Shown: positions 1,169 through 21,119 of the stretch, one piece after another | Position numbering within the stretch: the first letter of the stretch is position 1 | How the letters are laid out: each line of letters opens with the position of its first letter | From: Eledone cirrhosa | Lineage: Eukaryota | Length of the DNA: 64,000 bases | NCBI GenBank assembly: GCA_964016885.1 | Contig: OZ024743.1 | Coordinates: forward strand, 328,662,001 to 328,726,000 | Direction: 5' to 3' | Notes under the pieces: generated by a model | Told to the model about the DNA's origin: nothing | What the model saw: the letters and a program-made list of their open reading frames with translations, nothing else | Databases searched by the model: none | Made by a program: the position numbers and the translations under genes

Positions 1169-3676
1169 AATTATGTTCTTCTGGTTTTATAATTTCACAA
1201 AGTTTTACCAATAGAGAGAGAGTCGGTTTCTAACATAGACACAAGACTCTCTCATTGGAATTGACACAACATCAACTAGGTAGATATGTATGCATGCATG
1301 TGTAGATATGGATGTTATTGTATGTGTGGATGTGGATGTTTTGAGTTGTATGTGTGCATGTGTTTATGCTCTGTATCTGTACATGTGTATATGCAGTTAT
1401 TAGATGCAACATTTTTGGAATGTTTTACATATTTTTACTGTTCCATTAATGGATTGTACTTGTAATTTCCTAACTAGTTGTGTTCTTTCTGTTCCTGTGA
1501 AGCTCGGCTTCTCAAGTTTTGTATTGAGGCAGTTACTAACATATCCCAGTTCCCCAATAATCGCAGGCATAAATCTGAAGGTGTAATCAGGGTGGAGTAT
1601 CTGCAGATTTCTCATCAGTTCTGCATAAATATTCTCCTTTTCGCTAATCTTTGATATTATATTGGCATCTGCTGGGCAGCTAATTTCCACTACTGTGCAT
1701 GTTTTCTTCTCCCTGTCCCATATCATAATATCTGGTCTGTTATGCCTGCATTTTATTGGGGTTTTTACTGGAACATTCCACCAGTACTCTTTCATATTAT
1801 GTACATGGATGTCTTCCACTTTGCTGTAACTTTTAATGTGTTTATTGTCGGGGCTATCTTTTTTACGAACTGCATTGTACAGTGTTTTGGCCACTATATC
1901 ATGCCTCATAGGTAAATAGTACAGCGATGACATATTTGGACAGCTGCTGATGACATGGGTGATATCCTCGATGTTAGTTCTGCAGAGTCTGCACTTGTTA
2001 TCACATCTAGGTGTTTTGCCTGCATCCCTATCTCTTTTGTGAATCAGGTATTTAGTGCTAATCTCCTGTTCTTGGATTGAAAAAGCGTATCCTTCAAAGT
2101 GGGAGCCAATATAGCGGTTGTTGGTCCAAGATAGACTACTTTCCTTATCTATATTACTCTCACTCTGGAGCTTCCTGGCAACATATCCATGCATGATTTT
2201 TTGCTGATAGGCATGCAGTTTTTCATCCATGGATTCACTGCGATACTGCTGAGCGACATCCCTGGGTGTGAGTTTTTGATTATCACACAGGGAATATCTC
2301 TCAAGGAGTTCCTTCCCAACTCTCATGATCTTATCTGTTTCATGCAGATAGACTTGCTCGAGAAGCGGGCTCCTACGCTTCGAGGTTCGTAGATGTTGTC
2401 GGATAGATATGATGCAACATTCAAATGTTGTCTGGACTGATGTTAGGCCTCTGCCTCCCTGCTTACGTTTCAAGTAAAGGCGGTCTATGTCACTGTTGAT
2501 GTGGAAGTTTCCGGTGTTGTTCAGTATTTTTCGAGTTCCAACATCAACTGTTCGGATTTCGTCTATCGTCCAATTGAGTATTCCAAACGCTGGTGTTAGG
2601 ACAGGCACAGCAAACACAATGTGAGCCACTGTTTTGTTTTGCGCAGAGAGTTCCGATGACCAGATCTTTCTTAATCAGGTGTAGTATTCCTGGTTACGCG
2701 TTCTTTATTACAGATACCATTATAGGATATGTTCTCATCTATCCCCAGGTATCTGTAGCAGTCCTCATCAGATATCGGTGAAACAGTTAGGCCATTGATG
2801 ACAATGTTGTTAGATTGGGTTGTTGTTTTTCCCCGCTTTACAGTCATGTATGAGCATTTATCTTGGCCAAACTCCATTCCTATATACTTTGAGAACGTTG
2901 TAACCAGGTCAAGACTTTTATTCATCCCATCCATGTTCTTGGCATAGAGTTTCAGATCGTCCACAAAGAAATTATGGGTTAGGTTCGTATTTCTGTCCTC
3001 CTGTGAGCCAATGATGTATCCCTCACATTTCTTGAGCAGAAAGGACAAGGGGTTTAATGACAAGATGAATAATATCACAGAGAGACTGTCCCCCTGAAAT
3101 ATACCCCTGCAATATTTTATTTTATCAGTGAAAATAGAGTCCTCCCTCTCTGTCTTTAACCTTAGGATAGTAGCCCAAGAAGAAGTCAACTTCTCTATGG
3201 CTCTGACAATAATGTCTGCGACTTTAGCAAGTTGGAGGGCCTCTATCATCCAAGAGTGGGGAACAGAATCGAAAGCTTTCCTGTAGTCCAGAGAGACTGT
3301 AGCCATATTCCTCCTAAGTTGTCGCATCTCCGACATCGCAGTTTTGTTGATTAGGAGTTGTTCAGCACATCCCCAAACCCCTTTCTTTCCAGCTGCTTGT
3401 TTATTTGTGATGATGTTATTATTTTCACAGTGATCTTGGAGGAATAGGTTCAGGCAGGCTGTATACATCTTATACATCAGGTTCTGGCATGCAATGGGTC
3501 GGTAGTTTTTTGCCAAGTGGGTGTCTTTGTTCTGGGAGACCAGTAATGTTTGTCCTAATGTCAACCATTCTGGTATAATCATATCTTGTTGGTAGAGGTC
3601 AGTAAGATACTTCCGATAGAATATCAGTTTTTTGTACCAGTAGCCGACAATCATGTCTCTTCCTGGTATTTTCTTA
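1169..3676 (-). mobile_element. R4/Dong-clade non-LTR retrotransposon (family A): RT + CCHC zinc finger + REL endonuclease; 5'-truncated, frameshift near 2690
   Basis: RT motifs NYRPIAC, DYRKAFDSVPH, GIFQGDSLS, FFVDD, YRYLG (2671-3654). CRLC..HVISSC, RHD and RPDIMIWD..VEISCP (1400-2629). Both ends abut (ATGT)n. 3'UTR is shared with the copy at 42752. Confidence 0.92.
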
Positions 3677-3710
3677 TGTATGTATGTATGTATGTATGTA
3701 TGTATGTATG

Positions 3711-4675
3711 TTATCTCTTTCTCTTAATTTCGAGCATATTTTTTTGACGGTTGACAAGGTTGTAAAAGAAAAGAAATTGTCATCCCTTGAATCGCAAGAA
3801 TTTTTTTGCAAATTTTGAAGGTGCCAGCTTCGCAGCCATTTGTAGGGTATGAATTAGGGAGCTGCGCTCTTTGTCCGCAAATCCAAGTTCAGTCATACTT
3901 TGGTCCAAGCGGGTTGGTATATAACCCGTAGCTCCAATAATGATGGGTATGAAGCTAAAGGTGTATCTTGGATATTGGATTTATAAACTCCTCATCAATG
4001 GTCCGTAGATGTTCTTCTCCTCCTATATTTTTTTGACAACGTTTACATCAAGTGGGCAGCTGATCTCCACAACAGAACACGTTTTCAATGTGTGGTCCCA
4101 AACAACAATATCAGGCCGGTTTTGCTTTAATTTGGTGGTAGTTTTTATTTTCAGGTTCCACCAGTATTCCTTAGTGCCATCTGTCTCAATATATTCTTCC
4201 TCGTTTGTTTTCAATTTTGTTTTCCGAAGTGCGTTCCAGATGGTTCTAGCTATCCTATCGTGTCTCATGGGGAGGTAGTAGCGAGATGACATTCTTTCGC
4301 AGCTGGCAACAATGTGGCTTACATCCTCGATCTTTGTTTTACATAGCCTACATTTATTGTCAGCTGATGGCCCTCCCCTTTTGTGCAGCAGATATTTGGT
4401 AGGGAGTTCTTGTTCCTGTATTGCATAGAGATATCCCTCAAGGTGTGATGTCATAAACTTGTCGGAACTCCATGCCAGGCTTTTTGAGTGGTTTATCCCC
4501 TCTATGGTCTGTGTTTTACGTCTCAAGTATCCATGCACAACTTTTTCTGTAAATTGGTCAATTTTTTCATCTTGTTTGAACATTGAATAGGATCTTCCGA
4601 TTTCTCTGGGTGAGAGATTTATATCAGGCTTTATTCCATATCTCTCCTCCAGATCAGTGGCTATTCTGATGATAT
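3711..4675 (-). mobile_element. 5'-truncated R4/Dong-like retrotransposon, second family (B)
   Basis: AIQEQELPTKYL, CRLCKTKIEDVSHIVASC, RHD and RPDIVVWD..VEISCP, with in-frame stops near the C-terminus. 3'UTR is unrelated to family A. Both ends lie in (ATGT)n. Confidence 0.9.
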
Positions 4676-16687: not shown

Positions 16688-17570
16688 TTAGCCGAATTAC
16701 CCGCACCTTGCTGCGTTTCACACTTTTTTTTGTAAGAAAATGATGATTGATTTTAAATCAGTGATATAATTTATGGAGAAAAACTCTGCATTTCAATATT
16801 ACTCAATGTAAAATGTCATGCATGAACAATTGGAAAACATTTTTTGTAATATATCAAATCAAAATTATATTATTAAATCTTATTCTTATTTTGTTTCTTG
16901 TAAATAATTTTTTTCAAAATATCAATTCAAAACTTTTGTGAATAGGCATCATATCTTGTCATTTACTATGGTTTAAATTTCATATAAATCGAAGGGAAAC
17001 ATTTTCATCGGAGGGTTGTGCCTTCGGGGAATCCTAATAGGGGTTGAAATTTGTTGAAATTTTATGAATAGACATATCTTGTCATTTTAATCGAAGGGAA
17101 AATATTTTCAGCGGGGGTTTTGTGCCCCCGGGGAACCCTTTGATTAAAATGAAATATACTTATCCAAATACACTGGGTAATGTAGTTTCAGAATATATAT
17201 GGTTATGGGGGTCAATCTCCAAAACCATAGGAGGAGTTCGTGAAATATTGTTCCATTTATTGGCAAAACATTTCACTATAGGGGGTTTAACTCCCATTAG
17301 AGTGTCTTGATATTATTGAAATTTGCTGAAATGTTGTGAATAGGCATCATATCTTGTTATTTAACTATGGTTTAAATTTCATATAAATCGAAGGAAAAAA
17401 TTTTCAGCGGGGTTTGTGCCCCCGGGGACTTTGATTAAAATGAAATATACTTATCCAAGTACCCTGGGTAATGTAGTTTCAGAATATATATGGTTATGGG
17501 TGGTTATGGGGGTCTATTAGGAGTAGTTCGTGAACAGACAGACAGGAACTACAACTTATATATATATATA
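16688..17570 (-). mobile_element. Non-autonomous Helitron (same family as 54682-55037)
   Basis: Near-identical to the 54682 copy, which retains the CTAG terminus. Has internal tandem duplications and a ctgtctgtctg subterminal motif near the 5' end. Confidence 0.75.
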
Positions 17571-18498: not shown

Positions 18499-18696
18499 AT
18501 GACGTCATTAAGTATGACATAGAATCGACTGGATTAACTTATTTTTCACCAAATATTCTAATTAATATGCTTGCTATTTGATAGGGAAGAATGGAATAAT
18601 GAGCACGCCAAGTCAGTATGATGTCATAGAAATCCGATCACGTGGTCAGCTTTAAAATGTTATAAAAGGCGAATTTCTGGTTGGCTTCAATCAGTT
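18499..18696 (+). promoter_or_regulatory. Pol II promoter of the protamine-like gene: CRE, CRE-like site, E-box, TATA, Inr
   Basis: ATGACGTCAT 18499-18508, ATGATGTCAT 18618-18627, CACGTG 18639-18644, TATAAAAG 18661-18668, TCAGTT 18691-18696. TATA-Inr spacing is canonical (~31 bp). Confidence 0.75.
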
Positions 18697-18757: not shown

Positions 18758-19129
18758 ATGATTTTGAAAGATAAAGTTCAGACGCTGGGCCGCAAATTTC
18801 TGGGCTCCATCAAGAGATGCCGAACGCCTTCAGTTGCCGCCGGCTATAGGCGTCGGAGAATGGCCTCTAACCGTAAACTCAATCAACAGAGTTTGTTGGA
18901 TGGAGGATTCAGAAGAACTAGGCGGCGTGTACCACGTGCACGTAGTGCTAAGCGTAGTAGACATAGAAGTAAACGACGTCAAAGCCGAGCGATTCGCGGT
19001 GGAAAGGGACGTTGGAGAAGTAGCCGTAGTAGGAGGCGCCGAAGTAGAGTTGGAGGAAGGAGACGAAGGAGGGGAAGAAAGGGAGCAAGCCGAAGCCGAA
19101 GCCGAAGACTATTTGATTCATCAAGCTAA
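18758..19129 (+). CDS. Protamine-like / sperm nuclear basic protein precursor (123 aa, intronless)
   Basis: First ATG after the Inr. Arg/Ser/Gly-rich with Arg clusters (YRRRR, SRSRRRRSR, GGRRRRRGR) encoded by mixed codons rather than a microsatellite. GC-rich island. AATAAA at 19193. Alternative ATG at 18860. Confidence 0.78.
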   Translation: MILKDKVQTLGRKFLGSIKRCRTPSVAAGYRRRRMASNRKLNQQSLLDGGFRRTRRRVPRARSAKRSRHRSKRRQSRAIRGGKGRWRSSRSRRRRSRVGGRRRRRGRKGASRSRSRRLFDSSS

Positions 19130-19192
19130 CCATTTTAACCTCACCTGAGTCAATGTAGTCTTCACCTTTCTTGACTGTTAATAATCAGTAGA

Positions 19193-19240
19193 AATAAACA
19201 CCTACAGTTAAAATTTGGTCGTTTTTATTTTTTTCTTGGT
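19193..19240 (+). terminator. Poly(A) signal plus downstream GT/T-rich element; duplicated at 19373-19416
   Basis: AATAAA followed ~20 nt later by ggtcgtttttattttttctt. Confidence 0.7.
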
Positions 19241-20023
19241 CAGTTTTGGTCAAGTTAAGGAAGCGCAGAGGCATTTTTTTCTTAACTAATCGAAGGTCAG
19301 TTTTGCTGCAAGTACGAAATGCGCTCCAGGGTGGACGCCGCTAAAGGCCTTTCTTGACTTTTAATAATCAGAAATAAACACCTACAGTTAAAATTTGGTT
19401 GTTTTTGTTTTTTCTTATCCCGTGAGAGTTGAGAATATTCTGCACAACTTGATGTGAAGGTTTCTGCTCGATCAAAAGCTCCCCAGGCTGATGACATTAT
19501 GGGAGATCCAGCTGGTTTCCTCCTAACCCAGGAGTGCTTGGTTCATCCCTTTGAGCCAGAGAATCTGTGAATATTCTGCTCAGGTGCATTACAAAGCATT
19601 TTTTTCTTATGGGTGTGATGTTGTGGGGTGGAGAGTTTCTGTATATTACAGGTGTGTAGGCATGGGTGTGGTGTGGTGGGGTGGGGAGTTTCTGTATATT
19701 ACAGGTGTGGTATGGTGGAAGTATACGGAATCATATACAGTATGTTTATGGAATTCTTCTTCTTCGGATGAACTTACTCCTTTGCTGCTAAGCTTCCGAA
19801 GAATATTCCAGAAACGGTGCTGGTAGGTTTTCTCCCTTCGTTCTCGAAGTCAACCTCTTCAACGGTCTTCCGCTTACACAACTTCCGTCCACTTCAAGCA
19901 CTTGTTTATACACCATTTTCCCTCTTCTGCATCACATGTTCATACCAGCGCAGTATTTCCTCTTGTACAATACAACTCGTTCCCTTTTCAGCTCATTTGT
20001 CTGTCTATCATTCATATGTACAT

Positions 20024-20211
20024 TATTGTTTCTACTTTTGGCACAAGGCCAGCAATTATCCCAGTGTATTACTGGTACTTTATTTTATCGACCTCGTAAG
20101 GATGAAAGGCAGTTAACATCGGCGGGATTTGAATTCAGACCATAAAGGGCCGTAACTCTTTGCTGCAAAGCATGGCGTCCGACCCTCTACCGATACTGCC
20201 AATCCACCGCC
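20024..20211 (-). mobile_element. SINE copy (inverted partner at 20873-21052, + strand)
   Basis: Match to the dominant SINE family. Confidence 0.85.
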
Positions 20212-20690: not shown

Positions 20691-21119
20691 CAAAAAAGTA
20701 CAATAATAGAAATATTATACGTTATAAAATAAATAGGATATGTTGGTCTCAATATGTAAACTAAACCAATTCTGGTTTTTTTAAATATCAACGGGGACAA
20801 CCTAGAAAAATTACCAATTTTCCACCCCCCGCACCCCCCCCTACCAATTTGGGACTTAAGAGTAGACCATTCGGATTGGCAGTATCGGTAGAGGGTCGGA
20901 CGCCATGCTTTGCAGCAAAGAGTTACAGCCCTTTATGGTTTGAGTTCAAATCCCGCCGAGGTTAACTGCCTTTCATCCTTACGGGGTCGATAAAATAAAG
21001 TACCAGTAATACACTGGGACAATTGCTGGCCTTGTGCCAAAAGTAAAAACAATTTTTCACCAGATTTACTTAGTTTTGAGATATAAATACATATTTATAT
21101 ACACACTATACTTTATACA

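Follow-up and report, generated by a model that had tools for sequence, protein, structure and literature searches.

A single-copy open reading frame of an octopod probably encodes a pro-protamine cut after hydrophobic-Gly-Gly motifs

A single-copy open reading frame (ORF) in the octopod Eledone cirrhosa encodes a small Arg-rich protein that, on balance, is best read as a pro-protamine cut after a hydrophobic-(x)-Gly-Gly motif, at least to drop a 50-residue leader. The ORF was found in a window, i.e. the whole stretch of DNA that was analysed, of 64,000 nucleotides (Table 1). That it represents a real gene is very probable, and its product is likely to be a sperm basic protein; the processing pathway proposed below is a reading of the sequence and is held with less confidence. 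Whatever the number of cuts, the gene is a concrete target, present in a single copy, for which peptide masses are predicted.

Table 1. Sequence features of the protamine-like locus, numbered from the first nucleotide of the window
Feature	Position	Strand	Remark
Perfect CRE palindrome TGACGTCA (distal)	18500..18507	+	2 in window, 9 in 464 kb
CRE-like site TGATGTCA (proximal)	18619..18626	+	sequence motif
E-box CACGTG	18639..18644	+	sequence motif
TATA box TATAAAAG	18661..18668	+	sequence motif
Initiator-type TCAGTT	18691..18696	+	predicted transcription start = A at 18693
123-aa ORF, predicted pro-protamine	18758..19129	+	14.6 kDa, net charge +46
Leader segment 1, residues 1-29	18758..18844	+	10% Arg; ends VAAG (single Gly)
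Arg run YRRRR, residues 30-34	18845..18859	+	sequence
Leader segment 2 from Met35, residues 35-50	18860..18907	+	net charge +1; ends LLDGG, predicted main cut site
Basic unit A, residues 51-82	18908..19003	+	32 aa, 3.96 kDa (3,960 Da), 44% Arg; ends AIRGG
Basic unit B, residues 83-100	19004..19057	+	18 aa, 2.20 kDa (2,201 Da), 44% Arg; ends RVGG
Basic unit C, residues 101-123	19058..19126	+	23 aa, 2.79 kDa (2,791 Da), 44% Arg
Out-of-frame 10-codon ORF, Met1-Met35 interval	18817..18849	+	sequence
Poly(A) signal AATAAA, then T-rich stretch	19193..19198	+	sequence motif
Duplicate of 3' end region (19165-19233)	19348..19413	+	90-96% identical; second AATAAA at 19373

The frame had been proposed, with its position and length, in a sequence-only reading of the same DNA, and both the ORF list and the sequence confirm it as 123 codons running from ATG to TAA. 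It specifies 40 Arg (32.5%), 18 Ser and 12 Gly, and Arg and Lys together make up 40% of the product. The share of Arg is 10% in residues 1-29 and 6% in residues 35-50, and reaches 43.8% in residues 51-123, together with 19% Ser, 10% Gly and a net charge of +35. This second part contains Arg runs of 3-5 residues, 16 RS/SR dipeptides, a single histidine and no cysteine. This layout, a low-Arg leader ahead of a 44%-Arg tail, speaks for a pro-protamine. The ORF draws on all six Arg codons, with an effective number of 4.9, and contains no more than two short tandem runs; it is therefore not a microsatellite artefact. Elsewhere in the surrounding 464 kb, ORFs with at least 30% Arg are all ERERER-type runs derived from AG repeats. 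Met1 is the first ATG past the predicted transcription start and has an A at -3. The second Met segment pointed out earlier is present and in frame. With A at -3 and G at +4, Met35 (at 18860) lies in a strong start context, stronger than that of Met1, and is preceded by the out-of-frame ATG that opens the 10-codon ORF.

The protein contains three Gly-Gly pairs (residues 49-50, 81-82 and 99-100), each with an aliphatic residue one or two places ahead. Four glycine linkers had been listed at first; these three stand, and the fourth, VAAG|Y, has a single Gly. Three plain Gly-Gly pairs are mildly unusual in shuffled sequences (P 0.04). For the aliphatic-(x)-GG pattern, occurring three times, 200,000 shuffles give P 0.0008 over the whole protein and P 0.0007 for the two internal sites, looser hydrophobic sets give P 0.004-0.010, and conditioning on the number of GG pairs gives P 0.010-0.013, the larger values being the fairer ones because the pattern was chosen after the sequence had been seen. 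The recurrence of the hydrophobic-Gly-Gly motif, as originally noticed, thus goes beyond chance at three sites over the range P 0.0008 to 0.013. It is not a by-product of recent duplication, since the units have no DNA-level similarity beyond that of codon shuffles (0 of 10 segment pairs, P 0.13-0.88), and internal duplication as the source of the repeat is unsupported.

The three sites differ in their local charge. When Arg residues are counted in the 8 positions before the last two linker residues and in the 8 positions after, LLDGG separates 0 from 5, whereas the counts are 4 and 3 for AIRGG and 5 and 6 for RVGG. The latter two therefore interrupt a continuous R/S tract and open no Arg block, and the proposal that such linkers precede Arg blocks holds for LLDGG and fails for AIRGG and RVGG. 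In terms of the rule for the adenovirus protease, (M/I/L)xGG|x in an excerpt of PMC4246237, LDGG and IRGG are matches, and RVGG and VAAG are not.

Of the alternatives to a processed precursor, the one that survives best, although we consider it unlikely, is a sperm nuclear basic protein in which the Gly-Gly pairs are flexible turns, and which is trimmed elsewhere or persists uncut as a protamine-like protein of 14.6 kDa. Salmon protamine keeps an uncut Gly-Gly ahead of its last Arg run; the literature searched contained no passage giving that sequence. Moreover, the two internal sites break up Arg tracts rather than begin them, the RVGGGG and LRAGKGK stretches of the ribosomal protein uL4, which are not cut, show a weak alignment to this region (E 0.019), and a 14.6-kDa product with 40% R+K fits the protamine-like class (6-40 kDa). 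Flexible turns fit less well with the sharp neutral-to-basic boundary placed exactly at LLDGG, or with the aliphatic residue before all three pairs in a region that is aliphatic-poor, although the latter could also arise if a turn had a hydrophobic anchor next to it.

The size of the predicted products bears on the same choice. Protamines are given as 3-10 kDa and protamine-like proteins as 6-40 kDa in an excerpt of PMC11607694; the predicted mature chain of residues 51-123 (8.9 kDa, 43.8% Arg) lies within the protamine range and the whole product outside it. The segment ahead of this chain, residues 35-50, has the features of a leader, with nearly neutral charge (net +1), LLDGG at its end, and Arg rising from 0 before the site to 5 after it. 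N-terminal cleavage of precursors is common among vertebrate and invertebrate protamines, squid included, according to the part of PMC12216123 available. Squid protamine contains up to 80% Arg (PMC11607694, excerpt), and a tail with 44% Arg, far below this value, counts against a pro-protamine. By size, composition and leader-Gly-Gly layout, the predicted protein is nevertheless likely to belong with the cephalopod pro-protamines. The first suggestion of a protamine-like gene is well supported by composition, by the leader and basic tail, by the promoter motifs and by the octopod host.

It is improbable that the gene is real but encodes a small basic protein with no role in sperm, such as a nucleolar or RNA-binding RS-type protein or the precursor of a cationic defence peptide, induced through CRE. 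The CRE is not testis-specific, CRE and TATA motifs being general, and the RS/SR dipeptides of residues 51-123, 16 in number, would suit such a protein; Pfam detects no RNA-binding or other domain, however, there is no long hydrophobic N-terminal stretch fit for a signal peptide, and the absence of relatives would be more in keeping with a reproductive protein that evolves fast than with a housekeeping one.

A full promoter and a poly(A) signal had been proposed, and motifs of these kinds (CRE, E-box, TATA, initiator and AATAAA) are present. No donor of the types GT[AG]AG, GTAAT or GTATG lies within the ORF; both promoter function and the intronless structure that had been put forward are predictions read from the sequence. 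Transcription is predicted to start at the initiator A (18693), 32 nt past the first T of the TATA box. Among 1,730 ATG ORFs of at least 40 aa in 464 kb, 19 have TATA plus initiator, 19 have CRE and 223 have AATAAA, and the three signals occur together in 2 of the 1,730, namely the present ORF and the shadow ORF in its +1 frame, the criteria being standard consensus motifs chosen after the locus was seen. In mouse protamine promoters, CRE sites act via CREM-tau, as stated in an excerpt of PMC2853129. A pyrimidine tract and a branch-point-like TTAAT just 5' of the ATG might pass for a splice acceptor, and AG dinucleotides follow at 18769-18781; between 18693 and the tract, GT donors are of weak types only. 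A second copy of the 3' end region, poly(A) signal included, lies 180 nt downstream and provides a second possible 3' end. Upstream of the promoter, two diverged copies of a unit of about 290 nt lie at 17044-17534.

The +1 frame (18768-19148, + strand) is acidic and stop-free, and includes an 82-aa ATG ORF from 18900. It is stop-poor by construction, since 71% of the second codon positions of the Arg frame are G.

Searches for relatives were blank and returned none of the cuttlefish T1/T2 or squid precursor sequences. In 5.8 billion clustered proteins, none of 473 candidates was a near-length relative and none of 7 a shorter one; an exact protein look-up gave no match, no relative was found among 1.84 billion representative proteins or, with the whole protein and residues 35-123 as queries, in the ESM Atlas, none of 599 metagenome contigs carried one, and no Pfam family matched at E up to 1. 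The PF00260 profile found nothing in the genome of the species itself, and nothing in the controls either. Such blanks are weak evidence because the protein is low-complexity and fast-evolving; they fit what an unannotated protein of this kind would be expected to give. The gene had been called probably unannotated, which holds as far as the protein collections go, the protein and its relatives being absent from them. Among PDB sequences there were four weak matches, the best being uL4 at E 0.019, and solved structures gave no histone match at E up to 10. Kinship with uL4 was rejected as compositional: the alignment consists of two overlapping pieces that are out of order, and its best stretch has E 1.8.

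Within the species' own 3.0-Gb genome, protein queries (residues 1-123, 35-123 and 1-58) and a DNA query revealed no paralogue, the sole other match being weak (E 1.83) and containing a stop codon. Hunts by promoter pattern gave 14 other matches in the first round, all without a protamine-like ORF, and 122 in the second, where none of the 89 examined had one (23 of the remainder were unlisted and 10 repeat-like rows were left out); a third returned five loci, again with no protamine-like ORF. By coding pattern, one hunt returned nothing, another gave 28 other matches, all without a protamine-like ORF, and a further one was swamped by microsatellites. These hunts were narrow and leave room for other protamine genes in the genome.

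That the frame has no function, being a chance ORF, a decayed retrocopy (of ribosomal L4, for instance), an internal exon or a shadow of the +1 frame (18900-19148), is the least probable explanation, for the acceptor-like tract before the ATG, the 126 codons of the +1 frame without a stop and the weak uL4 match that could be cited in its favour are set against TATA plus initiator, CRE and AATAAA flanking the ORF, donors that are weak only, a +1-frame ATG that is the fourth after the predicted start, uL4 pieces that are out of order and overlap, and own-genome searches that find this locus alone apart from the match with a stop.

Several other elements were observed around the locus and elsewhere in the genome. 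A SERTA-domain gene (PF06031), a single ORF at 22149-23498 on the - strand, is a convergent neighbour 3 kb from the protamine-like gene; the first 210 residues of its protein are 95% identical to those of Octopus bimaculoides and O. sinensis and 91% identical to that of Argonauta, which places the host among incirrate octopods. The gene is a good synteny anchor toward orthologues. Between these genes, a sequence of at least 128 nt recurs in inverted orientation (20078-20205 and 20873-21000, with 96% complementarity and 667 nt between the copies, in a scan ending at 21000) and has the appearance of a small non-autonomous transposon. Broken ORFs at 1400-4583 and 42965-43291, both on the - strand, resemble by eye the reverse transcriptase and endonuclease parts of non-LTR retrotransposons. 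On own-genome contig C5 (12.55-13.13 Mb, L121-L129), nine copies of a CRE-TATA-initiator unit are identical over the first 230 nt past the initiator and are mostly about 17 kb apart or clustered, and diverged copies occur at C4 235.18 Mb (L130) and C3 83.8 Mb (L131). In copies L121 and L130 a pyrimidine-rich acceptor-like site is followed by AATAAA. The C5-type unit shows neither a clear ORF nor an Rfam match at threshold, has folding z-scores of only -1.5 and -0.9, and is possibly a multi-copy non-coding or short-peptide gene. No convincing alignment links it to the protamine-like locus, and their kinship was rejected. On contig C2 (11.077-11.083 Mb, L186-L210), a tandem unit of 54-59 nt carries one perfect TGACGTCA per copy.

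The following pathway is proposed for the predicted pro-protamine. The CRE, TATA and initiator motifs would drive transcription in spermatids, after meiosis, and translation would begin at Met1. Disorder is to be expected in a protamine-type chain, and the 14.6-kDa precursor would bind DNA. Its weakly basic 50-residue front would temper this binding and aid import and deposition, in the manner of mammalian pro-protamine 2 (pro-P2), where the cleaved part is needed for both (PMC9258737, in the part available). After a possible earlier trim near Gly29, a cut after LLDGG (Gly50) would yield a 73-residue, 8.9-kDa, RS-rich protamine with 44% Arg and a net charge of +35, with a predicted mass of 8,915 Da if the tail is otherwise uncut and before modification, and this freed chain would condense sperm DNA. 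The protease that acts at LLDGG may do so after AIRGG and RVGG as well; provided that the first cut is real, we give these internal cuts about an even chance. IRGG mimics the motif at the end of ubiquitin. As to the enzyme, we guess from likeness of motif alone that a cysteine protease specific for di-glycine, either a deubiquitinase or an enzyme of SENP/Ulp1 type, is the likeliest candidate. SUMO proteases cut after Gly-Gly, as stated in a SUMO protease abstract.

The original proposal went further, towards a polyprotein. Further cuts would then give peptides of 32, 18 and 23 residues, with masses before modification of 3,960, 2,201 and 2,791 Da, a reading that we hold only tentatively. In its full form, in which a deubiquitinase- or SUMO-type di-glycine protease acting at the three marks would release three equimolar mini-protamines, it seems equally doubtful. 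Its main argument is that IRGG would serve equally well as a site once the leader is assumed to be removed by a Gly-Gly protease. It would also have precedents, since several sperm proteins arise per precursor in insects and, going by reference titles, in Mytilus and liverwort. Against it, units B and C (2.2 and 2.8 kDa) fall below 3 kDa, RVGG lies outside the stricter motif and the internal sites are not charge boundaries, and uL4 has uncut Gly turns beside hydrophobic residues in basic stretches. Should processing stop at removal of the leader, this would be a new pro-protamine of an ordinary, though useful, kind. Cuts at the internal marks as well would make it a protamine polyprotein whose units share a single di-glycine signal, and which protease matures pro-protamines would become a directly testable question; such a polyprotein would explain the set of small protamines of octopods and point to the class of the maturing enzyme.

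The literature searched contained no paper on an octopod protamine gene, older cephalopod papers, which possibly list matching peptides, being outside its scope. No paper among the matches listed dealt with di-glycine processing of protamine precursors, and an O. maya testis paper and its supplementary files named no protamine transcript. Protamine genes are mostly missed by annotation, a statement made for insects in an excerpt of PMC12216123.

Among known systems, the predicted protein can be compared with several basic precursors that are cleaved. The adenovirus core proteins pVII and pre-mu are basic DNA-binding precursors cut at (M/I/L)xGG|x (PMC4246237, excerpt), a rule that two of the three Gly-Gly sites fit here, whereas RVGG and the single-Gly VAAG do not; these proteins are viral and unrelated, and the analogy is one of chemistry alone. 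Insect protamines become mature proteins by extensive cleavage of precursors (PMC12216123, in part), and, going by the titles of references, the H1-like protein of Mytilus and the H1-derived protamines of liverwort likewise arise by precursor cleavage, their precursors being of histone H1 types. The present protein differs from the Mytilus and liverwort precursors in that its candidate sites share one di-glycine motif and that it has no winged-helix domain; it is therefore not an H1-derived protamine-like protein, although its size and R+K content (14.6 kDa, 40%) would fit.

With mammalian pro-P2 it has in common a precursor with an N-terminal part, which is cleaved in pro-P2, and CRE-containing promoters. 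There is no sequence similarity or Pfam match between the two, however, the tail here has no Cys and one His, and Gly-Gly sites are not known in mammalian pro-P2. Octopus sperm contains several small protamines rich in Arg, Ser and Gly (Po1-Po5 in O. vulgaris), with which, as with the protamine of E. cirrhosa itself, the present protein has an octopod host in common. The latter protamine is described as cysteine-containing in an excerpt of PMC12216123, and since residues 51-123 have no Cys, the protein is not of the Eledone cysteine-rich type.

The decapodiform pro-protamines, namely cuttlefish spermatid protein T and that of Loligo, are alike in being from cephalopods and in carrying a leader ahead of an Arg-rich tail. 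Cuttlefish and squid pro-protamine leaders end in Gly-Gly, the cuttlefish protein T being converted from T1/T2 to Sp1/Sp2, and a protamine gene of Loligo opalescens was reportedly described by Lewis et al. in 2004. Processing of the squid precursor removes a short leader from an Arg-rich tail (legend of Fig. 3C in PMC12216123). In the octopod protein, by contrast, the predicted leader is 50 residues long and divided into two segments by an Arg run, and the tail is 44% Arg (up to 80% in squid) and contains two extra hydrophobic-Gly-Gly motifs.
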